Numbered from the stretch's first letter, positions 27,916 to 64,000 are shown. The stretch: 64,000 nucleotides of DNA from Schmidtea nova (GCA_044892505.1 CM097882.1:317254001-317318000); one strand, 5' to 3'. Notes: generated by a model not told the origin, from the letters alone. Translations and numbers: made by a program.

Positions 27916-27934
27916 TAAATGTTTTTAGAAAAAA

Positions 27935-45130: not shown

Positions 45131-45703
45131 TTACACAAGCTCTTTGATTTCATGATTGGTATTGGATTGGATTGGGGTTCTTTCGCTGATTGTTCGTAGT
45201 TCGTAGTGGCTTTGGATTCGGTTTAGGTGTTTTCTCATTCTCTTTTGGGTTCTGATGTCTTGTATTGTTGTTCGATTCAGGATGACATGTTTTTGTTTTA
45301 AGATCTTCACTCGGTATGATGTTATGAGGATTGTGATCGCGATAATGGTCACGCTGAGTGCAAGGATTATTATAATTGCGATGATCCATTTTTCTTGATA
45401 TTCTATCTCTGCTTGGGCTAAGCTTTTTATGGGTTCTCGACCTTCTTTTAGGGTTTTTCTGATTGTTTTCAATTTGATTCGATGTTCATATAGGACCTGT
45501 TGAAATTTTTCATCGTTTGGGTTGTCTGATGTTATCTGTTGAAGTTGGGTGATTTCTTGTGTTGCTTCGCTGATTAGTTTATCTAGTTCTTGATAGGTTT
45601 TCTCGGGTAGGGCTCGTAGCTCCTTCTCTGTGAGTTGAAGATCTTCTCTTTGTAGGGTGATTGTTATTAGGTATAGGAATATCGGTATTCTGAGCTTTTT
45701 CAT
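45131..45703 (-). CDS. Putative small membrane protein (signal-like N-terminus, coiled coil, TM helix)
   Basis: MKKLRIPIFLYLITITLQ; TM WIIAIIIILALSVTIIAITILIT; basic tail. Confidence 0.7.
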   Translation of the reverse strand: MKKLRIPIFLYLITITLQREDLQLTEKELRALPEKTYQELDKLISEATQEITQLQQITSDNPNDEKFQQVLYEHRIKLKTIRKTLKEGREPIKSLAQAEIEYQEKWIIAIIIILALSVTIIAITILITSYRVKILKQKHVILNRTTIQDIRTQKRMRKHLNRIQSHYELRTISERTPIQSNTNHEIKELV

Positions 45704-45784
45704 ACTGTTTCTTTACAGATAGGTCAATACAATTTGACACTACATTTCATACAATTATTTACAAAAATATATTTTCCGCTTTAT

Positions 45785-46846
45785 TTACACAATCGTCTCA
45801 TTTGGTTCATAGAAACCTTCGTCCTGAGGCTCTACTTGGTTCGTGGGGAGTGGTATCCAAACAACCCTGCTCCTCCACATTTCGACTTCATCTCGATACA
45901 TGTGAGATATCTGGATCTCCTCGTCTAGCAAATATTCTAGGTAATTTGCTTGTTCTGTTAATGTTTCTATTTGTTTCTCTAATTCGATTACTTTTGTCTT
46001 TTGTTCGTCTTCTTTTATCATTTTTGTTACGGCTGCCGTTATACTTGGTTCTTTGGGTATTACTGATACTGTTACTCGTTTCTGTTTCAATTCTTCGTTT
46101 TCTTTCATCAAATTCGTTAAATTTTCCTCATAACTTTGTTTCTCTTCCCTTGACCTTTCTCTGGTTCTTTTTAGCTCTATTTTCTTCTGGGTAATTACTC
46201 CTTGATAACCATTTATATCTCTCTTCATCTCTTCTTCTTTCTGATTCCATATTCCGGTGAGCATAGTTTTCAGTTGTTCTTGATTAGCTAGTTCTTCTCC
46301 CATTCTTTGAACTTGATAGGTTAGTCCTTTAATTTTCTTTGCTTGTTCCCGGATAAATTGCTGTCTCTTTGTATTCCATCTTTTATTCAACATTTCTTGG
46401 TGTATTTTCTGTTCTAACTCGTCTTTTAATTCGTCGATCTCTTTATATAATTTCCAGTCATCACTATAAGCTGTCCTTTCTATTATTTCTCTAGCTTTTT
46501 CGTAAGATTCTTTCGCTTCTTTCTTCCAGTATCTTGCTTGTTCTGTAATCGAATATATCTTGTGTTCAGCTTCCATCTGCTGTCTGTCTCTTTCCTCTCG
46601 TCGCTCTTTCATCATTCCCTGGTAATATTCCTTTTGTTGTTTTAGTATTTTGTATACTTCTTCTATTTTTTCTCGACTTCTTTGACTTGATCTTTCCGCT
46701 TCTTTTAATAATTCGGCTTGTCTCTCTATCTCCTCTTGCTTTCCATAATATGCACTGACCCATATTTCAATCTGTTCTAGATGATCGCTAATCGCTTCTG
46801 CTTGATGCATCGTAATTTCCTGTAAGCATACTTCGATATTTCCCAT
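45785..46846 (-). CDS. Long coiled-coil accessory protein
   Basis: 353-aa intact ORF, E/K/Q/R-rich heptads, same A-rich codon bias as the polyprotein. Confidence 0.75.
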   Translation of the reverse strand: MGNIEVCLQEITMHQAEAISDHLEQIEIWVSAYYGKQEEIERQAELLKEAERSSQRSREKIEEVYKILKQQKEYYQGMMKERREERDRQQMEAEHKIYSITEQARYWKKEAKESYEKAREIIERTAYSDDWKLYKEIDELKDELEQKIHQEMLNKRWNTKRQQFIREQAKKIKGLTYQVQRMGEELANQEQLKTMLTGIWNQKEEEMKRDINGYQGVITQKKIELKRTRERSREEKQSYEENLTNLMKENEELKQKRVTVSVIPKEPSITAAVTKMIKEDEQKTKVIELEKQIETLTEQANYLEYLLDEEIQISHMYRDEVEMWRSRVVWIPLPTNQVEPQDEGFYEPNETIV

Positions 46847-46961
46847 TGCTATAATTTCAAAAAAAAATTTTTTAATCGGTTTATATATCAGTTATTTTTT
46901 GTTTATATAATAATTTTTGGGTATTTAACTGTACATATTATTTACACGATCACTTCTCTTG

Positions 46962-48344
46962 TTACGTCAACCATTCTTTTCTATCCGCTTTCTCATTCCT
47001 TTCCATTTCTATGTATAGGGTGTCTGCATATAATCGTTCCCATAGGCTTTCTTTCGTTATAAACATTGGTTCTCCCGCTGCTAATCCACATTCTGTGGTT
47101 GGTTTCTCGCTCGTACTCGCATGTTTCTCTGTCTCAAAGAATTTTTCTACTGGTTTTGTTACACTTCTGATTCTTACAATGACTCCTACTTTCAAGGGCC
47201 ATTCTACTAGGTCGTCGTATTCTCCTTTACATAGCGAGAAAAATATTGACACATGTGTTCCTCGTCCTCTTCCGTCTCCATTTGGGTATAGCTTCAATCT
47301 CACTTTAGCTCCGTTTCTCCATAAATAAAATGGTGGGCTTATTACTGCTGTTTTCGTCATATTTCTGGCCTCTGTTAATTTGTTTCTAAAATCTGTCACT
47401 TTCCACACATATGGTGCGATTGGTAACTTTTCCTCGGTATCCTGGGTGAGTTTGTTGTACTGGATTTTCATTCCTTTAGCCAATTCTTCGATAGCTTTTA
47501 TCTTTTCCTCCATCTTTTCTCGTGTTAGTTCGAATTGCTCTCTGGTTTCCAACAGTAGGTTTACCATTATCTTGTGTGACTCTATTTCTCTTTCTAATTT
47601 TTTGATTGTTTGTTCGGTTTCTTTTGTTGCTTCGTTTGTCATTTCCGCATGCTTTAGCAATGCTTCCTCCAGATGTTGTTTCATGGTTTTTTGCGTTCTT
47701 TTCTCCATACATCCCTGTTTGTTATAAGGGCATTCCCTTGGTTTCTCCGTGCACATTTTCCAATGTTCTTGTAATTTTACTTCTGCCGTTATCTCGCATT
47801 CGTTTGAACATATTCCTACATATTGTCTACATACTTTCTCCTCTTTTACATTCAGGTGTTCTTCTTCGATCTTTCTCCTCGTTTCTCGAGTTCCACAATA
47901 TTCGCATAGACTTTCCTCTTCTTTACATTCATCTTTGTGCTGCTCTTTATTCTTTATAGTTATTTTTTGTTGGCATTTGTTACATTCGGTTCTCTTCTCC
48001 TCGCAGTTCTCCAGATGGTTCTCGAGATCGCGTATTTGTCCTTGCCATATACATGGTTGATTTATACATTCGGTTTTCGTGTTCATGATTTCTCTCTGAG
48101 TTGCTCTATCTGGTCCGGTTTCTTCGAATTTTATTTGTCCTTCTTTGCATTCTGGACATTCTGGTGGTCTTTTCATACTTAACTCGTGTATGCATTTGGT
48201 ACATACTCTGCATCCGCATAGGGTTTGTCTTGGTTTCAATATTATGTTTTTACAATTTACACAAGTGAGTCTCTGACTCCATTTCCTGTTCTCGGCTCTC
48301 AAAATTTCGATTATCCGCTCTTCGGCTTTTCCTTCTGTATTCAT
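46962..48344 (-). CDS. TRAF: TNF-receptor-associated factor (TRAF)-like protein, intronless
   Basis: RING (C..C..IL.KPRQTLCGCRVC..C...CPEC), TRAF zinc fingers (C.N..C.W.G....LE.HL..C; CPY...GC), coiled coil, MATH (YVWKV.DF..SPPFY...G.K..L.LYPNGDG.G.GTHVS.F....GEYD..LEWP). Confidence 0.93.
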   Translation of the reverse strand: MNTEGKAEERIIEILRAENRKWSQRLTCVNCKNIILKPRQTLCGCRVCTKCIHELSMKRPPECPECKEGQIKFEETGPDRATQREIMNTKTECINQPCIWQGQIRDLENHLENCEEKRTECNKCQQKITIKNKEQHKDECKEEESLCEYCGTRETRRKIEEEHLNVKEEKVCRQYVGICSNECEITAEVKLQEHWKMCTEKPRECPYNKQGCMEKRTQKTMKQHLEEALLKHAEMTNEATKETEQTIKKLEREIESHKIMVNLLLETREQFELTREKMEEKIKAIEELAKGMKIQYNKLTQDTEEKLPIAPYVWKVTDFRNKLTEARNMTKTAVISPPFYLWRNGAKVRLKLYPNGDGRGRGTHVSIFFSLCKGEYDDLVEWPLKVGVIVRIRSVTKPVEKFFETEKHASTSEKPTTECGLAAGEPMFITKESLWERLYADTLYIEMERNEKADRKEWLT

Positions 48345-48435
48345 TCTACAATGATATATACACTTGATTTGTTATCTATTTTTTGATTTTTCTTGTTTTT
48401 GTTTTTACATATTTACAATTTTTCGCTTTATTTAT

Positions 48436-48792
48436 CTACGGCTCGTTTGTTGAATCTGGTTCTGGGTCATTTTCTGATCTGTTTATTGCCCAATTTGTCC
48501 ATCCATCCTCTGCTTCTTCTGTCTCTCCCATTGTTAAACGGTCTATCTCTATTGCTTGTCTCTGATTTATGTCGCTCATCACTTGATTCTCTCTGGTAAG
48601 TTGCGTTATCAATCTCTGTTGCTCCTCGATTCTGTGGAGTTGTTCAAAACTATTATTATAACTTTCGGATAACAAATTCTGTTTCTCAATTAACTGATTT
48701 TGTAGTGAGTTGATTGTTCGTATTAACATGTCACACTGGGCTTTCCATCGCATAGCCATAGTAGTTTCTGCTATTTCTTCTTGTTCGTTCAT
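48436..48792 (-). CDS. Small coiled-coil accessory protein
   Basis: 118-aa ORF between the polyprotein and TRAF, co-oriented. Confidence 0.65.
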   Translation of the reverse strand: MNEQEEIAETTMAMRWKAQCDMLIRTINSLQNQLIEKQNLLSESYNNSFEQLHRIEEQQRLITQLTRENQVMSDINQRQAIEIDRLTMGETEEAEDGWTNWAINRSENDPEPDSTNEP

Positions 48793-48917: not shown

Positions 48918-51900
48918 CTATATCACCATCACTGTCTTTCCTTCGTATCGCTCTTCATCTTCTATTTGTCTCCAAAATTCTTTACCTTTCGTCCTCCTTT
49001 GGAATTCTTTCTGTACTTCTTCCGGTAATTCTATACTGTAGTTCATAATCTTTATATCTGGCCAATGTGTTATTGGTTTCTTGTTGAATACATCATATAT
49101 CCATATTATTAATAATACTGTTATTACTGGAATAGTTGCTGCTAGTATTCCCAGACCAATTAGTTCTCTAACTTGTTTGTTTACGTCCATCTTCGTAATT
49201 TCACTCTGGTTAATCATTGGTCCGTATTGTCCCTTTAGTTTATTTAGTAGTTGTTCTCGTTCTTGTTGTTTTCTTTTAACTTCTTTAATTACTTCTTCCG
49301 GCGTCCATCTTGCGTAAGGGTCTATTACTACTTGTTCCGCGTCCATTTGTTTCGTTGTCTGACTTAATTCTTTAAATTCGAGTTTTCTCACTTTCCCTTT
49401 GGACGTTGAGTTTACCGGTGTGTAGTACGTTTCGCATCTTTCCTGCTGATTTCCTAATATGTCCGTCTTTTCTACCGCACATATCTCGTATTCGCTATTG
49501 AATTTCAGATTTCTGATACTTATTTCCTCTTTTCCTTTCACGTTTCCACAGTCTCGTGGCTGTCTTTCCCTTTGTTTCTGAACTATTACCCAACATATTT
49601 CTAACGTTTTATTGTCTATTCTCCATAGTATAAGAGTTGCTGTAGTATTCTTTTCGGTTCTTATTTGTATTTCTTGGTTTTTCTGTTGTCCATTAGGTTT
49701 AAAGGTAGTGGTATACCTCGCTTTTCCTTTGTTCCGTTGTCTTCTACTTTTTCGCGTTGTCTTTCCAACTTTTGTTCTGGTGGGTGTTTTATATAATTTG
49801 CATTCCAATTCATTTACTGTTATTTTGTCGCTTTTCCTAATCAGGCATATTTCGTACGTTTGATTGCTTTCTAATCCTTCTATTTGTATTGTGGTTGTTC
49901 CTCTGTTTGTTCGACATTGCGGCGGTGTATTCTGGTTTGTTTTCTTTTCCTGCTTCTTCCAGCATACGCCTTTGACGTCCGGTTCTATTCCGGTTAACTC
50001 TAACATTATAGTTGTTCTCCGTTTGGTGCGTTTATTTCTTCTTCCTCGTCGTATGAACTTTATTGTTTCCCCAGGTTGAAATGTTTTACAAATTGTCGTT
50101 CCTTTCTTGTGTCTTTCTTTTTCTAGTAAACATAGTTCATACGTCCTGTCTGCTTTTACTTCTGATATCTTGGTTACTTTATTTGTTTTCCTTTTCCGAC
50201 TCGTCTTTATTTCGCTTACGCCAATTTCTTCGTTGCTTCTGGCCCAACACTTTGGGTTGGTGTTTTGGGTGTCGTTCATCTCTGTTACTGCCATTGTGTC
50301 AATGTCTATCCCTTCTTCTAACCGTTTTAACATTGTTAATATGAGTGCTAAACATAGTAATTCTGTTTGGTAGGTCACTCTTTCGGTCTCGTTTGTGGTT
50401 ACTCTTGCTTCGGGCCTGTCTATGGTAATTTGTATAGTTGGCGTTGTTCGTCTGTCTATTGTCTGAGGTTTCTTGTTTTTTGTTCCTTGTGTCTCTGTTC
50501 CTCTACACTTTCCTACGACATAGTCTCCTTTGGATGGCTGCTGTATTGTTATGGTTACTTTGGGTGTTAGGTAACTTGCACATGCAATTGTCTTATGTGA
50601 TCTCGGATCCTTTGGTTTCCGAACGGTGCACATTCTGTACCAAGTATCTAGCTCTAGGTCATCGATCTCTATGATTTCTTGTTCGTATTCTGAGATCTTG
50701 CAATCCATTGGACTATTTTGTCCCGATATTTTGTCCTTTTTTGACCAACATACTCGTTCGATTCCTTTTGCGTTTCCAATTTGTATTGTCGCTCTTTCTT
50801 CACATATCATTCCTTGAGTTGGACTAATTAAGGTCATGATTACCGTTAGTAATAATAGTTCTGGTTTAAAGAATGGGTTTATTGTTTGTTTGTAGCCTGT
50901 TCTTTTTATTTCGTTTTTATTTTTATAGTTGTTGTTTCTTTGTTTCCCAAATTCATTGTTCTTATCATTTTTCTCTGTGTCCCTTCCTTTCTCTTCACTG
51001 TCCTCTTTATCTGATAACTCATGATCCTCTGGATTTTCTCGAGTACTATCGTCGTCGTTTCCTGTATTGTCACCTCCCCTTTGGTCGTTGAAAATGTCGT
51101 CCTCGACATTAATTGCTTCTATCATTTTTTCATACGTTATGGTTGTGAGTATACTTGCTTCGTATTCTTGTGTTTCTGCCTGCTTAGGTATTTCCTTATC
51201 GGTTAATTTACAATCTAGAATCTCTTTCTTGGCTTTTATCCAATTATTAAGGTACGTTTTCATTAGTTCTTTCCATTTGTCCGTACGTTCTGTTTCCTTT
51301 GGGTTGTTTGTGAATCGTAAATCTTTTCTTCTCATGAAGATATCTATTATCTTTGGCCATTTGTTTATTATTAATGCACACTTTATATACAAATTTTGGC
51401 CTTGTTCCATGCACTCGTTGATCCTGAATGCTGGTTCATTGGTGTTTGGGTTCATCCAATTGAGTATTGCTTCAGTTAGTTCAGCGTTATGCATCATGGA
51501 ATGTACGCTAGCTTTTTTAACTGTCCTTGTAAGGTATTCTATTTCCTCCTGATTTGTGATGGTTTTTATGAAATTTATCACCTCCCAATTGTGCGCTAAC
51601 AACGCTACGTCTAGTATTGAGCTGTCTTTGTTAGTTCTTCCCATGAGTCCTGCACCTGCTTCGTACAGTTCCTGTAACACTCGGGTTTTTGTGTTCGCTC
51701 TTGCTGCGAATATCATGAGGGTATCTCCCTTTTTATCTTTCATGTTCATGTCACTTCCGCAATCTTGCATCAACCGTGCAATTTCGACTACCCTCCTATT
51801 TTTTCCTGCTCGTAAGGCTCTATGTATTGGCAATACTCCATTCTTTGTTAATAAGAAAGTCACTGGCATTTCTCTTTTTATGATCATCATATCGTTTTCA

Positions 51901-54900
51901 TTGTAAGTTCCTTCCGCATATGCGTGTACCTTTTCCACAATTGATCCGAGTATCTCCAGTGTATGTTTAGAATTTTCGAATTCTGGTAATAGTTCTTTTG
52001 CTTTGTCCTGTATCGCATCTAACCTTTCTTGATATGGTACCTCTGCGCTGAAAAGTGGTGTAACTTTCCTTTTGCTTTCTCTTTCCTTTTGACATAGGAA
52101 TTGTTTGCATTTTTCGGGGTGGTTTAATATGTCTATTAGTTTGTCATACTCTTCCTCCACCGTTTTGTATTTATCTTGAAAATTGGATATATCTTTGTAA
52201 GTTATCGTCTTGGTTAGCGATTTTGCACACCATTCCCTAATTTTCCTGAATAATGCTTCTTTTTCACTTTCGAATTTACACTCCTCTTTGTTTTTGGAAA
52301 TTATGATATTTCTTCTGTCTAATAACGTTAACAGTGCTTTCTGGTCACAAACGAATTTTAATAGGAATTGTAATAACGTGTTTTGCCCTTCACTGTATAC
52401 CTCGTTTATATTTAACACCCATGTATCATTTTCGGATCTTTTCCATTTTATTAGCTTGCGTATTGTTTTGCAGTTACCGATTTTTATTGCCTCCTTGATT
52501 ATATCACCTTTGATCAGTTCGTCTATTTCCCAAGTGGCCTTCTCGATTATTTGTTTGAGCATTATCTGATTTGAGCTCCATATTGCGTGATTCAAGACTG
52601 TTTTGTTTTCTCTATCGCGTTCCGTCCAGTTGAAATCGGCATTTATCAAAAGGTCTATTATTGCTTTATCCGATTTGTAGATGGCTGCTACCATTAATGG
52701 TGTTTCTTGTTCGCTATTCCCAAAACCAAGGTGTTGGTTTGTTTCCTTAGCGATTTTTAGAAATTCTTTTACTCTCTCTACTTCTCCCCATTTTATGGCG
52801 TTATGTAATGCTGGTTGTCCTCCTATGTCTTGTAGTGAAAGTATTTCTGGAATTTTCTCCAGTAGTTCTGAAATGACTGGTTTTGTTGGTAGTCCCCTTG
52901 CGTAATCACTAATTATCGACTGAATATCTCTTAATATATCGTCTCTGACATGCCATTTTCCCATTATTTCTCTGGCTTTTAGTACCATTTCCTTGTTTCT
53001 TTTTTCTTGTTGATTGTTTTCTGCTTCGGTACTTTCATTGGTTGCTCTGAGCATATTCATTCTGGCTGTCTGGGATCTGGTTATTATTCGTTCTTCTGGC
53101 GCTGTGGTTATTGTTTTTGGTACTTTCTTACATCTGCATGTATTAACGTATATTGGTCGTATCAATGGTCGATTAACAAGTTTTACCTTCACATTGTTTT
53201 CCTTTTTGTATATAACTTCGTAAGGGCCTTTTCCTGGTCGTTGTAGTTTTTTAACGGTTCCTGGTATTATTTCTGGGGTTTCTATCATTACCCAATCTCC
53301 GGGTTTAAGATCATTTGTTTTAACATTTTTCTTTTGATCGTGTAGGTCCTTGTAACTTTCTTGATAAAACTTTATGTTTAGTTCTGCTGTCTTCCATATC
53401 TCTTGCATTCGTTCTTTGAATTTGGTGACGTAATCATCTTCCTCCATATATTGAGACAAGGGTGGTTGATATTCAAGATCTATTGGCATATTGCATTCCC
53501 TTCCATACATTAATTGAAATGGACTCAATTTTGTTGCTGCGTGTATCGACATTCGGTATGCCATTAGACATAGCTTTACGTATTCATCCCAATCTGTTTG
53601 GTGTTTGCTTACATAATTGGATAACATTCGAATCAATGTGCCGTTAAATCTTTCCGTTTGTCCATTGGTTTGCGGATGATATGGTGACGTTCGTAATTTA
53701 GCTATTCTGAAGTAATTTGTTACTTCATCTAGTATTTCGCTCATAAAATTTGTTCCTTGATCTGTTAGTATTTGTTTCGGGGTTCCGTATCGACAACATA
53801 TTTCTTCTACTAAAATTCTTGCTACGGTCTTTGCTTTTTGATCCGGCATCGCAAATGCCTCAGGGAATTTAGTCAAATAATCCGTTATTACCAATATATA
53901 TTGATTCCCGTTTAAACTTTCTGGCAATGGTCCTATTACATCCATCGCAATGGTAGTCATTGGTTCCGCTGGTATTGGCATGGGTTTTAAGGGATTTTTC
54001 CATTTCTTCCCACTATCCTTTCTTGTGGCACATGTTAAACAGTTCTTTATCCATTCCTTTACGTCTTCGTCCATTGTGGGCCAATAATATTTTTGTCTCA
54101 TGCGATCTAATGTTTTCTTATCGGACATATGTCCTCCTAGCTTTCCGTCATGGTATTGAGTTATTATCTCTTTTCGTCTATTACCTGGCAGACACATTAA
54201 TCGTTTTTCTCCATTTTGTATTAATAACCATCCTTTTTCTATTGTGTATCGATGTTGGTATTTCCTCATGTGTTCTTTTAACTCCGCATTGTCTTTGAAT
54301 ACATCCATATTCCGTGAGCTTAGGAATTCTATGATGGGTCTTAGTTCTTTATCCTCTTGCTGATCTTTCTTTAACTCGCTGAAATCCAAATCCTCTGCTA
54401 TCACTATGCATATTCTTTGCACTTCTGGGTCTGTTAGTTCTGGAAACGTTAATCTTGACATGCAATCTGCGTTGGCATTCGCTTTCCCTGATTTGAATTT
54501 TATATCTGGTGAATATTCTTGTAATTGCATCGCCCATCTCATTAATCTGCTGGATGTTTCCTTATGTTGTCCTAGCCATACAAGTGGTTGATGATCCGTG
54601 GTTATGCATATAACGTGTCCCCATAATAGATATTTAAAGTGTTTTATTGCTAATATTATTGCCAATGCTTCTCTTTCCGTTACCGAATAATTCTTCTCGT
54701 GTTTCTTGAATGTTCTGCTATAATATCCGATTACCCGCTCTTTTCCCTCGTCATCATATTGTCCTAACACTGCTCCTGCTGCATATCCACTTGCGTCGGT
54801 TGCGAGTAAAAATGGCTTCTTGAAATCCGGGTGAACCAATATTGGTGCAGTTATTAACTTATCTCGTAATGTTTCGAAGGCTGTTTGTTGTTCGCTTCCC

Positions 54901-57900
54901 CATATGAACGATACGTCTTTCTTTACTAGCTCCTGGATTGGTTTTGCAATTCCTGCGTAATCCTTTATGAATTTTCTATAGTAACCGCATAATCCGAGAA
55001 ATTCTTGGATCTGCGTTATCGTCTTTGGTACTGGACATTCTTTTACTTTATCAATGTTTCTGGGATCTGGTTCCTTTCCTTTTGCGGACACAATATGTCC
55101 TAAGAATGTCACTTTCTCCTTTGCCCAATCGCATTTCGATGGTTTGAGCTTGAGTTTCCATTGTCTCAATCTAACAAATACATCTCTGATATCTTGGATG
55201 TGTTGTTCAAATGTGCTTGAGTAGATCAGTAGGTCGTCAATGTAAACCATGCATTGTTTTATGCCGTGGGTAACGAAATTCATACATCTTTGAAATGATG
55301 CTGGCGCATTGGTTAGTCCAAATGGCATTTTCCTAAACTGGTACAAGTCTCTTCCGATAGTGAAAGCAGTTTTCTCTTTGTCTTCCTCTTTCATTTTAAT
55401 TTGCCAGTATCCGCTTTTCAAATCCAATGATGTAAAATATGCCGCTCCTTGTAATGTCAATAACATCTCGTTGATGTCCGGTAATGGGTATGTATCCCTT
55501 TTTGTAACTGCATTTAATCTCCGATAATCAATACAAAATCGTTGTGTTCCGTCTTTCTTTTTCACCATTACAACTGGGAACTGCCACGGTGAGCAGCTTG
55601 GTTCAATTACTTCTGCGTCTAGCATTTTCTGTACTTCTGCTTCTGCAACTGATTTTTGCGCTTCAGCTAACTTGTATGGTCTTAACGCAATAGGCGTTTC
55701 GTCTGTTAGTGGAATCGTATGTAGTGTGACGTCGCATGTCCCTAGATCTAAATCGGATGCTGCGAATATGTCTTTATATTCTATCAGTAATCTTTCTAGC
55801 TGTTTCTTTTGGTCCTCATTTAATAGTTGGCTATCAATGTTCCAAGTGGGTTCCTCCTCTTTTACTCCTTCTTTTATTGGTATTTCGATATCCATCATTG
55901 GAGTTAGTTTACCTAATCTTTCATTTTCATAAATTATTTTATCCTCTTCATCGAAATTTACTACATTTATTGGGATTTCTCCGTTGTCATTCGCACTCAC
56001 TAATCCCCTTGCCATTGGCAACGACTTTCTCTTTTCAAATCTTTTACTGGGTTCAAAGATCATGTCGCCTTCTATTGTAGGATCTATTTTTACGAAACAT
56101 ATTTTCTCTCTCCGTGCTGGTACGATTATTTGTTTCGAACTTGTTACTTTTGCTTCTATTGCGCATATCTGTCCTGTCCTATCCTTTAGTCTCATTGTTC
56201 CGAGATCAATAACTATTTCTTTAAATAATGCTGGCATCAGATCCGTGCCTATAATGCATGGTACGCTCAGTGCTGGTATTACTGCTACGTACGTTTCGAT
56301 TTCCGTGTTTTGATGTTTTATCTTTACCCACCATCTTCCGGCAACTTCTACTACTTCTTTACTGCATGCTATTACGTGAACGTTGGTTCTCTCGATATCC
56401 CGTCTTTGTTCTTGTGGTATCCATTTTATATCTATTGCTGAGATATTTGCTCCTGTATCAATCATCGCTTCTATTTCCCTTCCGTTAATTTCGATTGTTG
56501 TAGTTAATACTGGACCGGTGTTTGATGACATTACTGCAATTGTATGTGAGTCTCCTTGCGGATCTACGCTTCTGCACCGTCTCGTTCTATAGTCTTCTGG
56601 TATCATAGGATATATGTTTGTCATCGGCATCATTTGCATTGTATTTTGTCTCATCCCTGGTGTTGGTTCTTGGTACATGGTTGGTGGGGGTGCGTAACAT
56701 TTCCACATTTCCGCTGGATTCTTTTCGACATACTGTGGTACTTGATTTTTAAATACTTGACCTCCTTCGTTATCATCATCATCGTCGTCACTGGAATCGT
56801 CTTGGGTTCTGTACCCTTTCATTCTTTCCCATAGTCCTTTTCTCTCTTTCTTGAGTCGTTGTCTTGCTTGCTCGTTATTCATTATCTTTTTAAATTTTCG
56901 TCCCACCTCTTCATCGGTTCCTTTCATTTTTGCCAGTATTTTTAGGAGTCTCTTTATTCGGTGAATATCTTTTGAATGACCGTGTAATACCATTGTTTTA
57001 GCCAAAAATGGTAAGAATCCTACCACCAATTTCCAATTTACTTTCTTTTCTCTTTTATAGATGTCAAAACAGGCTAACATTTGAGTTATTATTACCCGTA
57101 TTATTTGTATAATTAGTATAACACCAAGTATTCCTGCCATCATTTGTCCAAATATTAAAAATCTTCCCCACATCGCTTTCATCATGTTTTCCGTTGCCTT
57201 CTTAAAGTGGGCTGGTGACAATAATAATTCGTAATTTGGTCCACCTTGGTAATTTGTTCCTCCTGTTATTGTTACAATACTGGATAACACCGCTTCTCGT
57301 CTTGCCGGAAATAGTATGTTTTGTCTTGCTGCTTCTAAATCCTTTGCACTATAGAATCCCATATTGCTTACATCTACGTCTTTAAATTTTCTTCCTTTTG
57401 ATAGTTGCATCAATTCAAATTCCCTTGGTGCTGGTACCTCTGTTCTTGACGGAAACATAACCCAATTCCCGTCTGGTTTTTGGTATAGTGGTCCATATGC
57501 GTTGCTGCAATTGAAAGGGTTTGGTTCGAAACTTACTGGATTTATGATTCTTGTCACTGGTTGTACATATCTTACTTTCCCTTTATATTCGATTTCTAGT
57601 TCGTTAGTACACTGACCTGGTTGTAGTTTTGTCATTGTTGCCACCTTTGCGTTCGTCTTTTTACATATGTATACGTACATGACCTCTCCGACTACCCTTC
57701 CAAAATGACCTTCTCTTAATGGTAATAATGGCATTGCACTATCCGGGTTTGTGATTGCTACCGCTAGTTTTGTCTTTAATATTTCCCTATTTAATATGCA
57801 ATCGTTGTTAATTAAATCGTAATACACTTTTTGTAGTGACGCTTGTCCTCTATGGAACAGAAAATCCATTTTATTGTTCATGTAAAGGTGTAATTTAACA

Positions 57901-60900
57901 TCGTTCGTGTGCACTTTGCGTTTCGCACTAGGTACTTCTTGTTTTGATACAAAAATGCCGGGGTAGTTGGTTTCCAACATAGCTACTCCGCATTTCAAGG
58001 CTGTTTTTCCTTTTACAAACCTCATTCCGATATCTGCATCTGAGGTAATTAGTACCGTTGGTGTATTTCTCATTTTAATTTGTTTTTCTTGTGTTCGGGT
58101 TTCAATCTTTTTCTCTCCCCGTACTGTGTCTTGAAGTATTTTTCCTCTTGCTGCCTCGTCTTCTTCTTCCTCTTGGAAGGTTTTCCCTTGTATCTCATCG
58201 AATTCTGCTTCCTTTAACAGTTGTAGTTGACATTCCTTTCCTCGTATCTGGTAGGTTAAGGTTGACATACCGGTTTGGCAAGTGTTTGACTCGATTTTGC
58301 ACATTGGTAGGGTTTTCATTTCTCCCGTTGTTGGATCGAAGAATGCCTCGTACGTTTTTAATTCCACTGTATAAGTATCTATTACTACTAGGTTGGTTGC
58401 TGCTACTCCGAATATTGGATATGTTGCTCCTTGGCAATACCCTTCTCCTCCCGTAATAGCTCCTGCTACATAATATGTTTGTTGCAATATCACTCCCGTT
58501 TTTCCTCTTATCTTTACTCTATCTCTAGTCTCTACTTCTCCATGTTTAAATAATTTTTCACAGTCTTCTCCTTGCAGCATTACCGATTCTCTTTCCGTTC
58601 CTGGCATCACGATTGCTGAATAATGGCGGTGTCCACAATAAAAAGCAAATCTGGTTTTATAAACTTTGCATTCCCTGACCATTGTTCTTATCAGTTCAGC
58701 TTCCTGATATACGTGGTATAATTGTCTCTTTTTTAATGTTTTTAACTCCGTTGGGGTTGCGTCCTTACATTGTTCTGTCCCTCGTAGTGAATATTTCTCA
58801 CCTAATGCCATTTGATCACAATCGAATACTTCAAATGCTGTTGCTCCGTCAGTACTAATCATCCATATTAACATCATCATAATGATAGAACTCAGGTTTA
58901 GTGATGATTTCCCGTTTCCTGTTCCCGACTTTTCCTTTTCCAATTCTCCCAATATCTCTTCGAATTTCTTTTTCATATTTTTGGCTTGGTTTTTCTTTTG
59001 GTTCGTTTTTGTGAATGTTTCCCATCCTCCTTTACTGATGATGTACGGTTCTATTTCTTTCTCTATAATTTTGGCTGTATTCTTTATATGTCTTTCGAGT
59101 GCTGTAGGTTTCAGTCGACCTCTACTCAGTGTCAACAGATTGTAAATTGTGTATGCCATAGCTATTAAATATTTGTTATCCGTCTCTGCTCCTTCCGTTA
59201 ACTTCTTTATCAACATCGTGGTTCCTTGCCAATCTAGGTGGTTTGACCTTGTCTTCTCTTTTATTAGTTCTGGTAGGATTGGTGCGATGGCGCTATGCAG
59301 TGATTTCGCCCTTTCGCTTATTTCGTTTATTCTCCACCATTTCTTTAATTCTGGATCGATTATTGCCAGTATTTCCATTAACATCTTTGATATCCATTCC
59401 TCGCCTTGGTATGTTTGTGTTGTTTCTTTTTCTTTCGTTTCGGCTATTTTATTTAGTTTCTTTAAACACAAATCCCATTGATCCCGTCTTTTTTCCTCTC
59501 TTGATTTTATAACTACATTTGCTGGATCCATCTTGGGTCTACCTCTAGGTCGTTTATCCATTGTCGTGCCCGTTTCTACCAATCTTGTTTCTCGTCCAGT
59601 TTCTTCTGTGACGTCTCTTGGTTCATTGGCTCTTTCTTCTAACCATCTTTCCATTTCTTGTGTGAATTGTACATTTTCTACATTTGCCCTCCTTGCTTCC
59701 TCTTCTGCTATTTCATTTACTTCTTCGATGATTATTTCTTGTTCAACTTCATCTTCGGTGTTGGTTACCGGTATTGCTGTTGGTAATTCTTGAATTCTTT
59801 CGAAAATATTATCATCCTTCTCTTTTGTTAGCTCTATTAACTCCTCTAACATATCATCGCTATCTGTAAAAATTTCGTCTACATCGTATGGTTCTGGTGG
59901 TGTTCTTTCTCTTGTCTCTCTTGGTGTTGTTCTAGCTTGTTCTGAGCTTGTTCCTGGAGTCATTACCGATTTCATTGGGCTCGGCGTACTCATACTTCCT
60001 TTTGGTTTCTTTTCCTCTTTCAATTTCAATGGTTGGCCTGCTATTGCTGCCACTGTCAATGTATTTGCGATATCTAATTGCGCTGGCGTTATTCCAATTT
60101 CCAAGCTGTTATCTAATGATCGTCCTTGGTGTTGTAAATGGAATGGTGGTTCATATCTCAATTTCTTTTTAATGTCTCGAACTTTCTCCGCTATCCCTAC
60201 CCAAAACTCTTCCTTTTCTTGGTTCGGATATACTATTCTTAGGTGTACTTTCTGTGGCGATTCCTGCGAGAATTCTTGGTTTCTCCATTTTTTAATTACG
60301 TGATCCAATTGTTCTGGACACCACTCGTTAACTCTTTTGTATTCGGCGATTGCTTTTGCTACTTTACGCAAGCATGTTATGTCTTCTCCATTAACTACGA
60401 AAAAATCTGCGAGACCTTTTACTACTTTTCTCTTGCCGTGCGCATTGGTTTTTAATATTTCGACAAATTCTTCCGTTTTTTGTTTCTCTCTTTCCAACCA
60501 CATGGTTGCCGTTTCTGGTCCGTCTAAATCCGCTGGCATGGCTTTTCTTGTTACCATACAGACTCTTCCGGTTTCCGGTTTGTGATCGTCTTCTATGCCT
60601 ATTTCATATTCTTCTTCGTACTCGCCTGCTTTTGGTTCCCAACATTTTCCTCGTTCGTTCCATTTCTTTTCTACGGGTGTTAGTAATCGTCTGTTGAGAT
60701 TGAGTTCTTCTAATACATCTTCCCATTCTGGCCAAATCCGCCAATTTCGATAAATGTCTACTATTTGTTGTAATTTATGCACAACTTCTTTTTGTCGTTC
60801 CCGTTCTCTTTTCTCATCCTTAGCAGTTTCTCTTGGTGTATCGTCCATTCTGATAACGTGGATGGTTTGATGATTATCCCATATACCAATTTTATATAGC

Positions 60901-63900
60901 CGTCTTTCATCGTGATCCCATAATACATGTTCGTTGTATTTCATGATTATGTCATCTTCCCATTCTTCTTCTGGTTCTCTTTGTAATAGTGTCTCGTTGA
61001 TGACATTTACTAATTCTTTTATGGTACAATCTGCTACCACTTCAATTTCTTTGGTATCCTCATTAGGTAACTCTACTGCAATTTTCAGATCTGTTATTTT
61101 CCCTTGTCTGAACATTGCTTTTCCCATTTTGGCAATTACTTTTCCGTATGAGATCTGTGACCATCTCGTGTGACTTGTGTCACGTATGCACTCGATACAT
61201 CGTTTCAACTTTTCGTATTCGCTTCTCATTAACTCCTTTCTATGTTTTTTGATTTGTGGGATGATTTGTTCTATCATGGAATTTAGATTTCCTCGTAAGA
61301 TTCGTCCTTTTTCGTATTCTAACCGTGGTTTTATCTTCCTCTCGAAACACATATTTGCTTCCTTTGCTACTTCTTGTAGGTTCTCTTCTCTCTTATCATC
61401 GCATATCGATAATGTTGTCACCTCTCCTGGCCATATGCCTGTTTCTATCAAATGCGTCCTTTTCTTCACTAGTCCATTCTGTGAATAGAGGAATTTGTTT
61501 TTATATGAACTCCCTAATCTATCTTCTACCCATTGATAAATATCTTCCGTGAGTGGAGTTTTGATCCAAATCCTTGGCAAACATGTTTTTATCTCTATTA
61601 GGATTATATATTCATGGAGTGGTTCTTTTAATAATTTTCCTACGTATTGGCTTAGTGTTTCTACTTCCCGGCCTGGTAACCACTCTTTATAGTTCATTTG
61701 TAATATCGCTCTCATGAATTTCCGATAGTGTTTCTTGTCGATGAACTCCTCATTATATATTACTTCTAGCGCGTTATCTAATAATTTCTGGATCTCGTCC
61801 TCTTTTACTTGAATAGTTTCTGGTGTCTTTACTACTTCTATCTTTTTGTCTTCAATTTCCGGTTCGTTTAGCATATCTCCGGCTAGACTACTGACGTCAC
61901 TATCCTCTTCGTCATCTGAAAAATTCTTTGCCTGGCCTCTCAACATGTTAATGTGTTTTATCTGGTTGATTTCACTTGGTGTATTTTCCGTTGGTCTTGT
62001 TTCACTTTTAATAGCTTTTTGTGTTGATTCACTCTTGTCGTCTACTACTTCGACCTTTCTCAATTTTCGTTCTAACTCGTCTATTTCTCCCAACCGTCTT
62101 CGTATCATTTTCCCTTTAAATATTCGACTGATTCGTGTTTCGTGACGCACTGGCGATGGAATTCCTTCTGGTTCTATTTCCTTGATTACCATCACATTTC
62201 TTTTTGTCTCTACTACTCCCATGTTTTCCCATGTATCCGTTAGTTTCAATTTTACTTCTGGTGCACCTTCTATTTTTAGGAATGCTTCTCTGGGCAGTTT
62301 CGTTACTCCTGGAGCCATTTCATTCACTTTATTGAACAATATTTCTACTTCTTCCTTTATGTTATATTGGAATCGAAACACGTGCTTGTTTGGCAAAATT
62401 ACCATCATTCCTCTTTTCCCGAGTTTCCTTTTCTCTTCTTGGTTCCCTTCTTTTTCTACTTCCTTTTCTGTTTCTTTTTCTGTTTCTTCATCTTCTTGTA
62501 TTATCTCTTTTCGGCCTTCGTTGTTGGTTGGATTCGAGTTTGTTGGATTTATTTCTGGTACAGTCTCTTTCTCGTGGGTATTTGTTTGATTGGTTGCTCT
62601 CATCATATTAATTTTTAGAGGTTGTCGTTCTCTTTCTTGCTGTTTTTGTTCCTCTTCTCTTTGTATTCTTGCCCATTCCTGAGCATGTCGTGCTTGACTT
62701 TCCCGATTCAATCGTTCGTTTTCGCTTTCTATTTTTCTCATCATATTGATTTGTTGTTGACCTGTTTGCGGATTTCCTCTGTTTGTATTGTTTATCAGCT
62801 CCGTCAATCTTTGAACCTCTTGCATTAAATGTATCTCTTTAGTGGTATTTTTATTTTGGTTATTATTATTACTATTTGGTTGGTTTCCGTATTCCGGTTG
62901 GTTTCCATTATTTGGCTGATTTCCATAATTCTGTCGGTTTCCACCAGTTGGTTGGTTTCCATAGTTTTGTCGGTTTCCGGTATTCTGCCAATTTCCTCGT
63001 TGATTGCTTCTTTGTCCGCAATTTCTTGATAGGTGTCCAGGTCGTCCACAATTAAAACAGGTTATTGTGTAGCATCTGCTCTCTGAATGCCCTTTTACTC
63101 CACATTTTCCACAATTCAAGTTCTGATAACATTCTTGTTGCCAATGTCCCAATTTCCCACATGTTTTACATTGTTTCGTTGGTCCTTGGGGGTTGTAATT
63201 GCTTTGATTTCCATAATTTGATACTTTATTCCCTTCATTCCTTCGTTGCGGTGGTGGTCGGTTTAATTGTTGTGAATTTGGGATGTGGTTATTCAGGTTC
63301 ACTTCTTGTTCGTTTTGTGCTGTATCCATAGCTAAATAGATTCTACCATCATTTCCTATCATGTGTAGTTCAAATCTATTAGCTGTTTCTAGTGCTTGGT
63401 CGATGGTTTTACACCCTTGGCATCCAACTTGCGCTCTTATGTCGGGTCTTCTTAATCCTCCCACAAAGATAGCTGCCATTAACTCCTCATTTATTGGGCT
63501 GTCTTGATTAAAGATCAACTTTGCTAACTTTTTCAATTCGCTCGCATATACCGCATTCGATTCATTTATCTTTTGTTTCCTCATTGAGAATTCCGTGAAT
63601 GCCTCATTCAATACTTTGTTTATTCCAAAGGTTTGTTGGAAAAAGTCCTTTATCGCTGACCAACTTGTAGGTGGATTAGTTCCATTTTTTGCTTCCAAAT
63701 ATAGATCTAATGCGCTATCTTTCAAATATAGCTGAATTCTGCTTACAGTTGTTTCTGGTTTCCACTTGCATACTTCCACGAATATGCCAAATTCTTTTAA
63801 GAAAGTTTCCAGTTTGCTCGCATCTCCATTAAACGGTTCTCCGGAAAATTTGTCTTTTATCTCTTCTCTGGGTTCGCTCATTTCAATTCCGCTGTCTGTA

Positions 63901-64000
63901 GTTATTTTACTTTCGTTTCCTCTTGTTTCTAGTTCACTGTTAGGTTCGTCACTCGAATTTCGGTCGATCTCAGTTTCTTTTGCTGATTCGTTATCTGATG
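48918..64000 (-). CDS. Giant Gag-Env-Pol polyprotein with accessory domains (at least 4987 aa; frame stays open to the window edge)
   Basis: Three CCHC knuckles (~63020-63175); glycoprotein (~57070-58835); protease IDTGA (~56450); RT RFCIDYRRLN/LDLKSGYWQ/MPFGL/YIDD; RNase H LATDAS..TDH; IN HH-CC and MD..TDQG..ERFN. The 39 codons upstream of ATG 63881 contain no stop. Confidence 0.97.
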   Translation of the reverse strand, partial: SDNESAKETEIDRNSSDEPNSELETRGNESKITTDSGIEMSEPREEIKDKFSGEPFNGDASKLETFLKEFGIFVEVCKWKPETTVSRIQLYLKDSALDLYLEAKNGTNPPTSWSAIKDFFQQTFGINKVLNEAFTEFSMRKQKINESNAVYASELKKLAKLIFNQDSPINEELMAAIFVGGLRRPDIRAQVGCQGCKTIDQALETANRFELHMIGNDGRIYLAMDTAQNEQEVNLNNHIPNSQQLNRPPPQRRNEGNKVSNYGNQSNYNPQGPTKQCKTCGKLGHWQQECYQNLNCGKCGVKGHSESRCYTITCFNCGRPGHLSRNCGQRSNQRGNWQNTGNRQNYGNQPTGGNRQNYGNQPNNGNQPEYGNQPNSNNNNQNKNTTKEIHLMQEVQRLTELINNTNRGNPQTGQQQINMMRKIESENERLNRESQARHAQEWARIQREEEQKQQERERQPLKINMMRATNQTNTHEKETVPEINPTNSNPTNNEGRKEIIQEDEETEKETEKEVEKEGNQEEKRKLGKRGMMVILPNKHVFRFQYNIKEEVEILFNKVNEMAPGVTKLPREAFLKIEGAPEVKLKLTDTWENMGVVETKRNVMVIKEIEPEGIPSPVRHETRISRIFKGKMIRRRLGEIDELERKLRKVEVVDDKSESTQKAIKSETRPTENTPSEINQIKHINMLRGQAKNFSDDEEDSDVSSLAGDMLNEPEIEDKKIEVVKTPETIQVKEDEIQKLLDNALEVIYNEEFIDKKHYRKFMRAILQMNYKEWLPGREVETLSQYVGKLLKEPLHEYIILIEIKTCLPRIWIKTPLTEDIYQWVEDRLGSSYKNKFLYSQNGLVKKRTHLIETGIWPGEVTTLSICDDKREENLQEVAKEANMCFERKIKPRLEYEKGRILRGNLNSMIEQIIPQIKKHRKELMRSEYEKLKRCIECIRDTSHTRWSQISYGKVIAKMGKAMFRQGKITDLKIAVELPNEDTKEIEVVADCTIKELVNVINETLLQREPEEEWEDDIIMKYNEHVLWDHDERRLYKIGIWDNHQTIHVIRMDDTPRETAKDEKRERERQKEVVHKLQQIVDIYRNWRIWPEWEDVLEELNLNRRLLTPVEKKWNERGKCWEPKAGEYEEEYEIGIEDDHKPETGRVCMVTRKAMPADLDGPETATMWLEREKQKTEEFVEILKTNAHGKRKVVKGLADFFVVNGEDITCLRKVAKAIAEYKRVNEWCPEQLDHVIKKWRNQEFSQESPQKVHLRIVYPNQEKEEFWVGIAEKVRDIKKKLRYEPPFHLQHQGRSLDNSLEIGITPAQLDIANTLTVAAIAGQPLKLKEEKKPKGSMSTPSPMKSVMTPGTSSEQARTTPRETRERTPPEPYDVDEIFTDSDDMLEELIELTKEKDDNIFERIQELPTAIPVTNTEDEVEQEIIIEEVNEIAEEEARRANVENVQFTQEMERWLEERANEPRDVTEETGRETRLVETGTTMDKRPRGRPKMDPANVVIKSREEKRRDQWDLCLKKLNKIAETKEKETTQTYQGEEWISKMLMEILAIIDPELKKWWRINEISERAKSLHSAIAPILPELIKEKTRSNHLDWQGTTMLIKKLTEGAETDNKYLIAMAYTIYNLLTLSRGRLKPTALERHIKNTAKIIEKEIEPYIISKGGWETFTKTNQKKNQAKNMKKKFEEILGELEKEKSGTGNGKSSLNLSSIIMMMLIWMISTDGATAFEVFDCDQMALGEKYSLRGTEQCKDATPTELKTLKKRQLYHVYQEAELIRTMVRECKVYKTRFAFYCGHRHYSAIVMPGTERESVMLQGEDCEKLFKHGEVETRDRVKIRGKTGVILQQTYYVAGAITGGEGYCQGATYPIFGVAATNLVVIDTYTVELKTYEAFFDPTTGEMKTLPMCKIESNTCQTGMSTLTYQIRGKECQLQLLKEAEFDEIQGKTFQEEEEDEAARGKILQDTVRGEKKIETRTQEKQIKMRNTPTVLITSDADIGMRFVKGKTALKCGVAMLETNYPGIFVSKQEVPSAKRKVHTNDVKLHLYMNNKMDFLFHRGQASLQKVYYDLINNDCILNREILKTKLAVAITNPDSAMPLLPLREGHFGRVVGEVMYVYICKKTNAKVATMTKLQPGQCTNELEIEYKGKVRYVQPVTRIINPVSFEPNPFNCSNAYGPLYQKPDGNWVMFPSRTEVPAPREFELMQLSKGRKFKDVDVSNMGFYSAKDLEAARQNILFPARREAVLSSIVTITGGTNYQGGPNYELLLSPAHFKKATENMMKAMWGRFLIFGQMMAGILGVILIIQIIRVIITQMLACFDIYKREKKVNWKLVVGFLPFLAKTMVLHGHSKDIHRIKRLLKILAKMKGTDEEVGRKFKKIMNNEQARQRLKKERKGLWERMKGYRTQDDSSDDDDDDNEGGQVFKNQVPQYVEKNPAEMWKCYAPPPTMYQEPTPGMRQNTMQMMPMTNIYPMIPEDYRTRRCRSVDPQGDSHTIAVMSSNTGPVLTTTIEINGREIEAMIDTGANISAIDIKWIPQEQRRDIERTNVHVIACSKEVVEVAGRWWVKIKHQNTEIETYVAVIPALSVPCIIGTDLMPALFKEIVIDLGTMRLKDRTGQICAIEAKVTSSKQIIVPARREKICFVKIDPTIEGDMIFEPSKRFEKRKSLPMARGLVSANDNGEIPINVVNFDEEDKIIYENERLGKLTPMMDIEIPIKEGVKEEEPTWNIDSQLLNEDQKKQLERLLIEYKDIFAASDLDLGTCDVTLHTIPLTDETPIALRPYKLAEAQKSVAEAEVQKMLDAEVIEPSCSPWQFPVVMVKKKDGTQRFCIDYRRLNAVTKRDTYPLPDINEMLLTLQGAAYFTSLDLKSGYWQIKMKEEDKEKTAFTIGRDLYQFRKMPFGLTNAPASFQRCMNFVTHGIKQCMVYIDDLLIYSSTFEQHIQDIRDVFVRLRQWKLKLKPSKCDWAKEKVTFLGHIVSAKGKEPDPRNIDKVKECPVPKTITQIQEFLGLCGYYRKFIKDYAGIAKPIQELVKKDVSFIWGSEQQTAFETLRDKLITAPILVHPDFKKPFLLATDASGYAAGAVLGQYDDEGKERVIGYYSRTFKKHEKNYSVTEREALAIILAIKHFKYLLWGHVICITTDHQPLVWLGQHKETSSRLMRWAMQLQEYSPDIKFKSGKANANADCMSRLTFPELTDPEVQRICIVIAEDLDFSELKKDQQEDKELRPIIEFLSSRNMDVFKDNAELKEHMRKYQHRYTIEKGWLLIQNGEKRLMCLPGNRRKEIITQYHDGKLGGHMSDKKTLDRMRQKYYWPTMDEDVKEWIKNCLTCATRKDSGKKWKNPLKPMPIPAEPMTTIAMDVIGPLPESLNGNQYILVITDYLTKFPEAFAMPDQKAKTVARILVEEICCRYGTPKQILTDQGTNFMSEILDEVTNYFRIAKLRTSPYHPQTNGQTERFNGTLIRMLSNYVSKHQTDWDEYVKLCLMAYRMSIHAATKLSPFQLMYGRECNMPIDLEYQPPLSQYMEEDDYVTKFKERMQEIWKTAELNIKFYQESYKDLHDQKKNVKTNDLKPGDWVMIETPEIIPGTVKKLQRPGKGPYEVIYKKENNVKVKLVNRPLIRPIYVNTCRCKKVPKTITTAPEERIITRSQTARMNMLRATNESTEAENNQQEKRNKEMVLKAREIMGKWHVRDDILRDIQSIISDYARGLPTKPVISELLEKIPEILSLQDIGGQPALHNAIKWGEVERVKEFLKIAKETNQHLGFGNSEQETPLMVAAIYKSDKAIIDLLINADFNWTERDRENKTVLNHAIWSSNQIMLKQIIEKATWEIDELIKGDIIKEAIKIGNCKTIRKLIKWKRSENDTWVLNINEVYSEGQNTLLQFLLKFVCDQKALLTLLDRRNIIISKNKEECKFESEKEALFRKIREWCAKSLTKTITYKDISNFQDKYKTVEEEYDKLIDILNHPEKCKQFLCQKERESKRKVTPLFSAEVPYQERLDAIQDKAKELLPEFENSKHTLEILGSIVEKVHAYAEGTYNENDMMIIKREMPVTFLLTKNGVLPIHRALRAGKNRRVVEIARLMQDCGSDMNMKDKKGDTLMIFAARANTKTRVLQELYEAGAGLMGRTNKDSSILDVALLAHNWEVINFIKTITNQEEIEYLTRTVKKASVHSMMHNAELTEAILNWMNPNTNEPAFRINECMEQGQNLYIKCALIINKWPKIIDIFMRRKDLRFTNNPKETERTDKWKELMKTYLNNWIKAKKEILDCKLTDKEIPKQAETQEYEASILTTITYEKMIEAINVEDDIFNDQRGGDNTGNDDDSTRENPEDHELSDKEDSEEKGRDTEKNDKNNEFGKQRNNNYKNKNEIKRTGYKQTINPFFKPELLLLTVIMTLISPTQGMICEERATIQIGNAKGIERVCWSKKDKISGQNSPMDCKISEYEQEIIEIDDLELDTWYRMCTVRKPKDPRSHKTIACASYLTPKVTITIQQPSKGDYVVGKCRGTETQGTKNKKPQTIDRRTTPTIQITIDRPEARVTTNETERVTYQTELLCLALILTMLKRLEEGIDIDTMAVTEMNDTQNTNPKCWARSNEEIGVSEIKTSRKRKTNKVTKISEVKADRTYELCLLEKERHKKGTTICKTFQPGETIKFIRRGRRNKRTKRRTTIMLELTGIEPDVKGVCWKKQEKKTNQNTPPQCRTNRGTTTIQIEGLESNQTYEICLIRKSDKITVNELECKLYKTPTRTKVGKTTRKSRRQRNKGKARYTTTFKPNGQQKNQEIQIRTEKNTTATLILWRIDNKTLEICWVIVQKQRERQPRDCGNVKGKEEISIRNLKFNSEYEICAVEKTDILGNQQERCETYYTPVNSTSKGKVRKLEFKELSQTTKQMDAEQVVIDPYARWTPEEVIKEVKRKQQEREQLLNKLKGQYGPMINQSEITKMDVNKQVRELIGLGILAATIPVITVLLIIWIYDVFNKKPITHWPDIKIMNYSIELPEEVQKEFQRRTKGKEFWRQIEDEERYEGKTVMVI

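Follow-up and report, generated by a model that had tools for sequence, protein, structure and literature searches.

The 64,000-nucleotide stretch of Schmidtea nova DNA analysed here (GCA_044892505.1 CM097882.1:317254001-317318000; hereafter the window) comes from contig C1 of a genome of 1.25 Gb and holds most of a 28,438-bp element. This element, completed from the neighbouring stretch, is a Burro-type Ty3/gypsy retroelement that is autonomous and has transposed recently. Its polyprotein consists, in order, of Gag, four ubiquitin-like (Ubl) domains, a Bcl-2-like domain, an envelope protein (Env), protease (PR), reverse transcriptase (RT), RNase H (RH), integrase (IN), two ankyrin clusters, four FN3 repeats and a transmembrane (TM) helix. 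We propose, with a probability of roughly 0.6, that this one polyprotein threads the membrane of the endoplasmic reticulum (ER) twice and is processed into Gag, enzymes, modules that act on the host, and two surface proteins, and that the element, with accessory genes expressed from RNAs of their own, favours survival of the producing cell and spreads from cell to cell.

Structure and recent movement of the element

A minus-strand frame (48918-63998) has 5,026 stop-free codons inside the window and 5,140 once the neighbouring stretch is added, being open for 340 bases past the window end; the chance of the polyprotein frame at the composition of the window is about 10^-164. A first-pass annotation, made from the sequence of the window alone, had described a stop-free frame of at least 15 kb, which was confirmed. 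Its polyprotein of more than 5,000 amino acids holds for the open frame, whereas the protein counted from the first ATG (48918-63881, ATG at 63881) has 4,987. The 153 codons 5' of this ATG are conserved, with a ratio of nonsynonymous to synonymous substitution (dN/dS) of 0.29-0.41, so that translation of the polyprotein may start earlier.

The 3' long terminal repeat (LTR; 41619-44926, minus strand, like all features of the element in the window given below) has 3,308 bp and TG...CA ends. The 5' LTR, which the first-pass annotation had proposed to look for together with the primer site and the LTR identity, was found beyond the window end (L001:3749-7056, in the neighbouring stretch), is of the same length and is 100% identical to the 3' LTR. 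The internal region measures 21.8 kb, and the element is flanked by the 4-bp target duplication TTAC. Six nucleotides after the 5' LTR lies a primer site with an 18-nt match to host tRNA-Pro plus CCA (the tRNA-Pro 3' pattern has 1,106 matches genome-wide). The TG...CA LTR pair with its target duplication, the tRNA primer site and PR-RT-RH-IN with their catalytic residues place the element in Ty3/gypsy (Metaviridae). Seven further open reading frames (ORFs) share the strand of the polyprotein. RING153 lies in the leader, ORF118, TRAF, ORF353 and ORF190 follow the polyprotein, and each LTR contains two.

From 40 gag hits, 12 copies were fetched, a sample biased towards young copies. Eleven of the 12 had an LTR pair with 99.3-100% identity, and 10 of these 11 an exact 4-bp duplication; a single unbroken frame of 4,985-4,987 amino acids was found in seven copies, the other five being broken. 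TRAF lay at the expected distance for 37 of the 40 gag hits (65 of 92 TRAF places used), and 83 of the 92 scored TRAF matches were at least 96% identical, 10 of the 83 having an internal stop; these counts are lower bounds. Collinear copies with distinct target duplications occur on three chromosomes, and contigs from three public runs of unknown kind covered 30 of 30 bins; no convincing splice joints were seen in these contigs. The family of the window element has moved very recently, and the earlier description of a recently active, env-bearing complex Gypsy element is borne out, with extra modules that have structural matches and are under purifying selection.

Values of dN/dS were obtained against two copies of a sister subfamily with about 80% nucleotide identity, synonymous sites being near saturation in several of the regions compared, and were 0.00-0.02 for PR, RT, RH and IN, about 0.04 for capsid and Env, 0.05-0.07 for the Bcl-2-like domain, 0.06-0.23 for Ubl, 0.08 for the first ankyrin cluster, 0.13-0.21 for FN3, 0.11-0.19 for TRAF, 0.07-0.23 for the other accessory ORFs and 0.47 for an acidic linker. 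Third codon positions were the most divergent in each of the 11 regions tested, as they were in the two LTR ORFs. For the LTR ORFs, dN/dS against the sister subfamily was saturated, and codon-position patterns against two older copies, which showed the third-position excess, were used instead. Judged by these substitution patterns, the accessory modules are under purifying selection.

Modules of the polyprotein and accessory genes

Env (57057-58901) sits in frame between the Bcl-2-like domain and PR and comprises a signal-peptide-like segment, a fusion glycoprotein ectodomain and a TM helix (57057-57167), the membrane segments being called by hydropathy. It matched Pfam Monjiviricetes_fusion (PF24664), a mononegavirus-type fusion glycoprotein, with E 1e-70, and its profile matched no fusogen in the PDB. 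Env is likely a gB-type fusogen.

A second membrane module forms the C-terminal end of the polyprotein. Hydropathy only indicated a second signal-peptide-like segment (50808-50873), and it likewise placed a C-terminal TM helix (49083-49172) before a 54-aa tail. Between them lie four FN3-fold repeats with invariant Cys and Trp (50556-50810, 50064-50342, 49776-50057 and 49410-49688; span 49410-50810). A blastp search of the polyprotein against itself gave no internal repeats, and the FN3 repeats emerged from the Cys/Trp pattern; repeats 1-3 were assigned by alignment and repeat 4 by a structural model. In this model (predicted local distance difference test, pLDDT, 83) six strands were called, and all of the 50 structural matches listed were FN3-containing chains. 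Their Z values (7.0-8.4) are middling, and the case rests on the uniformity of the matches and on a Pfam fn3 match in the related B4706 family (E 0.0012, under the curated cut-off). An FN3 profile gave only E 1 and 2.5 against the PDB, Atlas matches scored 0.87 and are a lead only, and the module had no relatives among 1.84 billion representative proteins. Taken together, the modelling supports an FN3 beta-sandwich fold, with one or two such modules per subfamily. Seven of the 28 N-glycosylation sequons of the polyprotein fall in the 545-aa FN3 ectodomain. On these predictions, the module is likely a second surface protein beside the fusion protein.

The remaining modules were assigned as follows. 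Gag (63018-63881) contains a capsid region (Pfam Retrotrans_gag) and three CCHC knuckles (63170, 63113 and 63059). Four Ubl domains (62163-62417, 61389-61610, 60831-61094 and 60015-60263; span 60015-62417) lie between helical blocks; the top 14 of the 22 rows that a profile of the repeats from three families gave against the PDB were ubiquitin, ISG15 and ubiquilin (E 0.001-0.09), evidence that concerns all repeats in one profile and does not prove single domains separately. An acidic linker carries KRPRGRPK (59532-59555), a motif that we take to be AT-hook-like. The Bcl-2-like domain (58985-59513) keeps a BH2-type GGW and lacks the BH1 motif NWGR, which lines the BH3 groove in pro-survival Bcl-2 proteins. 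Its profile against the PDB matched a designed repeat protein first and then Bax (E 0.0012) and Bcl-xL, and Bcl-2 proteins were the top 17 of 50 structural matches of its model (Z 6.8-7.9), which is itself weak. According to these predictions, the domain has a Bcl-2-like fold despite the absent BH1 motif; as this motif is missing, it may act in either direction. No relatives outside this genome were found in a weak search among proteins of 308-2,000 aa or in the Atlas.

PR (56175-56537, DTG), RT with RH (54489-55811, YIDD) and IN (53094-54401, zinc finger and D,D(35)E) were identified by Pfam and motifs, and their catalytic motifs are intact. The conserved, beta-rich linker between PR and RT (55839-56165; dN/dS 0.04) had been called dUTPase-like, a label that comes from PMC6431247; it had no Pfam or PDB profile match, which lends the label no support. 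Two ankyrin clusters (52299-52961 and 51129-51908; span 51129-52961; Pfam) are distant duplicates of each other (19% identity, E 4e-7) and give generic ankyrin matches only; as IkB-like modulators of NF-kB, the role suggested in the first-pass annotation, they are candidates. Apart from this linker, Pfam, motifs, profiles and models agree with the module order first annotated, from Gag, Ubl, the AT-hook motif and Bcl-2-like through Env, PR, RT, RH and IN to ankyrin, FN3 and TM.

After the polyprotein come the four co-oriented ORFs already annotated, of 118, 460, 353 and 190 aa. ORF118 (48436-48792; dN/dS 0.09) encodes a short helical protein of no known family and is retained in the T476 and cargo-only families described below. 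The 460-aa TRAF (46962-48344) is intronless, full-length and TRAF2/3/5-like, with RING, zinc fingers, coiled coil and MATH (zinc fingers and MATH by Pfam); its only relatives outside this genome were three distant ones with 23-25% identity. ORF353 (45785-46846; dN/dS 0.07) is coiled-coil-like and of no known family, and ORF190 (45131-45703; dN/dS 0.23) is a small predicted membrane protein with a hydrophobic N-terminus and one TM. The earlier parts list, mostly correct for the modules that it named, missed both LTRs, the two LTR ORFs and the RING ORF of the leader. LTR-A ORF (43048-43524; 158 aa) and the coiled-coil-like LTR-B ORF (42147-42731; 194 aa) lie within both LTRs without a Pfam match, and a homologue of the latter is present in T476. 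RING153 (L001:2959-3420, beyond the window; dN/dS 0.09-0.10) encodes an IAP-type RING without BIR and resembles the RING of a Burro-borne IAP in the same genome (44% over 43 aa); in the window family, no BIR was matched in the scanned ORFs and no BIR-type Cys/His motif was seen in six frames. Between RING153 and gag, the leader holds three short tandem arrays (L001:1857-2484; 31/61, 40 and 45 bp), at which alignments of other copies break up. Just outside the 5' LTR (L001:7900-10000 and L002) are ORF fragments that are presumably DNA-transposon-like.

Relatives in the genome and the proposed life cycle

The sister subfamily carries a second whole signal-FN3x3-TM module in tandem. T476, known from one copy with most of pol deleted, has the same gene set and is 53-79% identical in most domains. 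B4706 (L085-L088, G000:C1:97571571-97611070), also known from one copy and broken near its end, has MATH inside a 4,606-aa ORF1, as in Burro1, with one ankyrin cluster and FN3 repeats, and its RT is 89% identical to that of the window element. A 17-kb family (L026-L043, e.g. G000:C2:299539763-299569762), of which six copies were fetched, has 855-bp LTRs and a 3,360-aa Gag-Ubl-Bcl2-Env-Pol ORF. This ORF includes two Ubl, a Bcl-2-like domain and an Env that separates gag from pol, and it ends in a signal, a beta-rich region and a TM; neither ankyrin nor TRAF was matched in this family. Motifs of its second ORF (468-482 aa) resemble those of a DEDDh exonuclease, an identity that Pfam scans of both halves did not confirm. 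Env is shared across the families at 35-50% identity. In a tree with weak deeper support and no outgroup, the MATH domains of the window element, the sister subfamily, T476 and B4706 group together (95/93), separate from 11 host-type TRAFs, and Burro TRAFs share a RING variant with host-type TRAFs. A single TRAF capture with subsequent movement in and out of ORF1 would fit this tree but is not proven by it. As separate observations, a 13.4-kb sister copy (L003-L006, G000:C2:219898703-219912139) with 99.97% identical LTRs has lost everything from the primer site through the first FN3 repeat and keeps accessory genes only, and G000:C2:404-455 Mb holds a dense TRAF/MATH gene cluster, in which several genes are intronless and full-length, with the Cys-for-His RING variant of the element TRAF.

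A BIR search, in which 150 of 1,295 candidates were scored, hit mostly a dispersed 399-codon frame. All six BIR-bearing copies examined (L100-L121, e.g. G000:C1:253261142-253291141) are 24-28 kb long; their LTR pairs share 99.9-100% identity, and their tRNA-Pro primer site is that of the window element. They match PR, ankyrin and MATH, and none of the six matches capsid, nucleocapsid, Bcl-2, Env, RT, RH, IN or FN3. Their open frames encode a PR-ankyrin protein of 1,036 aa, a complete TRAF, an IAP with BIR and RING, and coiled-coil proteins. From its gene content, this high-copy, cargo-only family seems to be non-autonomous and to carry cell-death genes.

In the proposed life cycle, Gag, Ubl and Bcl-2-like would remain in the cytosol, and the signal segment would direct Env into the ER, after which the TM of Env would return the part from PR to ankyrin to the cytosol. 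The second signal would send the FN3 repeats into the ER, and the last TM would leave the 54-aa tail behind. Signal peptidase would free both membrane proteins, while the element protease may cut at a recurring word, (I/V/M)-(N/H/C/A)-hydrophobic-hydrophobic, which the sister subfamily retains. This word follows the nucleocapsid, stands where PR begins and recurs at the junctions PR-linker, RH-IN and IN-ankyrin. RING153, ORF118, TRAF, ORF353, ORF190 and the LTR ORFs would be made from spliced subgenomic RNAs; YAG occurs 1-5 nt upstream of six of the seven accessory ATGs and not at the Gag ATG (chance about 0.15 per ORF, by hand), suggesting splice acceptors. The Bcl-2-like, TRAF, RING and ankyrin modules may keep the producing cell alive or quiet, and particles would pass from cell to cell within the animal by means of the likely gB-type fusogen and the FN3 protein, the latter likely for attachment. 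A signal-like segment, beta-rich ectodomain, TM and tail follow IN or ankyrin in every env-bearing family examined (window, sister, T476, B4706 and 17-kb), and the FN3 module is missing together with Env and capsid in all six cargo-only copies, which fits a role in the particle.

Several points weigh against this scheme. Hydropathy is the sole basis of the membrane topology, and translocation could be halted by a conserved hydrophobic stretch that lies between FN3 repeats 1 and 2. The ectodomain of the 17-kb family is not shown to be FN3, nor was the cleavage word enriched in that family; as the word was picked after looking, its shuffle control is inflated. The Bcl-2-like model is poor (pLDDT 50), and BH1 NWGR is absent from the window, sister and 17-kb families. 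One polyprotein would yield roughly equal amounts of Gag, Env and Pol, unlike in most retroviruses. Finally, BIR is reportedly the domain behind the effect of Burro1, and the window family has none.

Among other explanations, the FN3 membrane protein may not be a particle component but may act at the surface of the producing cell, together with TRAF and ankyrin, as a decoy or as a mimic of a signalling receptor. We regard this as rather unlikely: the cargo-only family keeps TRAF, IAP and ankyrin and lacks FN3, and a similar module occurs in the 17-kb family, which has neither a TRAF nor an ankyrin match. In favour of a decoy, cytokine and adhesion receptors are among the best FN3 structural matches, and the module lies among the modulators and far from env, has a second copy in the sister subfamily and changes faster than the enzymes, as is common in decoys. 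Since the FN3-type module tracks Env and capsid across families, and not TRAF and ankyrin, an attachment role is favoured over a decoy role. That misassembly or neutral cargo produced the pattern was ruled out by the seven unbroken copies of 12, the collinear gag-TRAF loci and the low dN/dS. Indeed, a chimeric long frame or neutral accessory parts, which the first-pass annotation had named as the outcomes that would overturn it, have a negligible probability: collinear copies occupy three chromosomes with distinct target duplications, diverged subfamilies have the same layout, the public contigs span all bins, folds were matched and dN/dS is well below 1. Nothing was found for them beyond the lack of relatives of the FN3 module.

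It is more doubtful than the decoy role that the cargo is kept mainly for host benefit, namely stem-cell survival and regeneration, with the element spreading intracellularly and Env being a relic or serving intracellular budding only. The Burro1 IAP is reported to be anti-apoptotic and to protect stem cells (Lee et al. 2026 as cited in PMC13465017), and TRAF and IAP frames are still open in the high-copy family without capsid, Env, RT and IN. In very young copies, however, a frame can be open without host selection, the window family is without BIR, and Env is as constrained as capsid and is kept across families. BURRO1 transcripts are under PIWI control, and BURRO1 RNA interference gave no rescue of the smedwi-2 phenotype (PMC8532177), a result that speaks to harm and not to benefit. 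A benefit to the host is also compatible with spread by particles. Returning to the two-surface-protein scheme, a wider version of it is tentative and clearly less probable than the scheme itself: Burro may be an endogenous animal virus lineage with a gB-type fusogen and an expandable FN3 attachment protein, accompanied by satellites without capsid, envelope, RT and integrase that would spread TRAF and IAP genes in many young copies and tune stem-cell death in trans.

Two observations concern other loci. The plus strand of the window (22473-33988) holds an ORF cluster resembling Maverick/Polinton, with an A32-type ATPase (22473-23105; Pfam E 7e-7), a weak integrase match (24140-24649) and a 1,325-codon frame with endonuclease VII motifs, whose further motifs we take to be polymerase B-like. 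A long tandem tRNA gene array with a 308-bp period lies at G000:C1:459609706-459656576.

Comparison with known systems

Giant Gypsy elements with a single ORF of about 4,900-5,100 aa are also described from Schmidtea mediterranea, namely Burro1/GYPSM1 and Burro-2 to -4, and from Dugesia tigrina, a Burro-like element (PMC6431247). Both they and the window element have a three-CCHC Gag, Ubl/SUMO-like and BCL2-like domains, an env that lies in frame between gag and pol and matches mononegavirus fusion proteins, the enzymes PR-RT-RH-IN, ankyrin repeats, MATH/TRAF, accessory ORFs and tandem repeats (in the window element, in the leader); dUTPase-like and BIR domains were described in addition, and provirus and apoptosis hypotheses were already proposed there. 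The layout that the first-pass annotation had taken as surprising, with env between gag and pol and with Ubl, BCL2-like, ankyrin and MATH/TRAF modules, was thus already published. Relative to the same source, the window element is shorter (28.4 kb vs over 30 kb), has four Ubl and two ankyrin clusters, and carries the FN3 module and LTR ORFs, which are unmentioned there. TRAF is a whole gene downstream of ORF1 in the window element, whereas MATH lies inside ORF1 in Burro1 and in an upstream ORF in D. tigrina. Compared with Burro1, the window element has RING only and no BIR, and no MATH in the polyprotein. By its gene content, it is a variant of the Burro kind with a mostly known layout and not Burro1 itself. 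The FN3 membrane module, the LTR ORFs, the cargo-only family and a BIR-less RING gene in the leader were not found for Burro in the searched literature, which excludes the primary papers Grohme 2018, Jurka 2007 and Lee 2026.

Related systems share single traits. Errantiviruses of GAG-ENV-POL order with HSV/gB-type env occur in Platyhelminthes, Nematoda and Bryozoa (PMC13524379), and the window env is, by eye and not by alignment, most like the printed fragment of Smed_errantivirus_5; the words Burro, fibronectin, Bcl, ankyrin and accessory do not appear in the main text of that paper, and its LTR search left out pairs more than 14 kb apart. The B-IAP of Burro1 (Lee et al. 2026 as cited in PMC13465017) is an element-borne cell-death regulator, as here, where a whole IAP is found on the cargo-only relative. 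Large retrotransposon derivatives (LARDs; PMC6431247) are non-autonomous relatives moved in trans, as with the cargo-only family; they are mainly non-coding, whereas the cargo-only family has open host-derived genes. Over 121 planarian TRAF transcripts are cited in PMC7586133, a count that many-copy element-borne TRAFs may inflate.

Burro was proposed in 2019 as an integrated virus that interferes with apoptosis, and a later report credits one cargo gene with aiding regeneration. A young family with defined modules, genes in its LTRs and a likely second membrane protein makes testable, in a standard laboratory animal, whether the element passes from one cell to another and which of the cargo genes are required by the host or by the element itself. 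In complex retroviruses and foamy-like endogenous retroviruses, accessory genes lie 3' of pol and within the LTR, as in the window element. The window element differs from complex retroviruses in having Gypsy rather than retroviral enzymes, and one polyprotein with two predicted membrane proteins.

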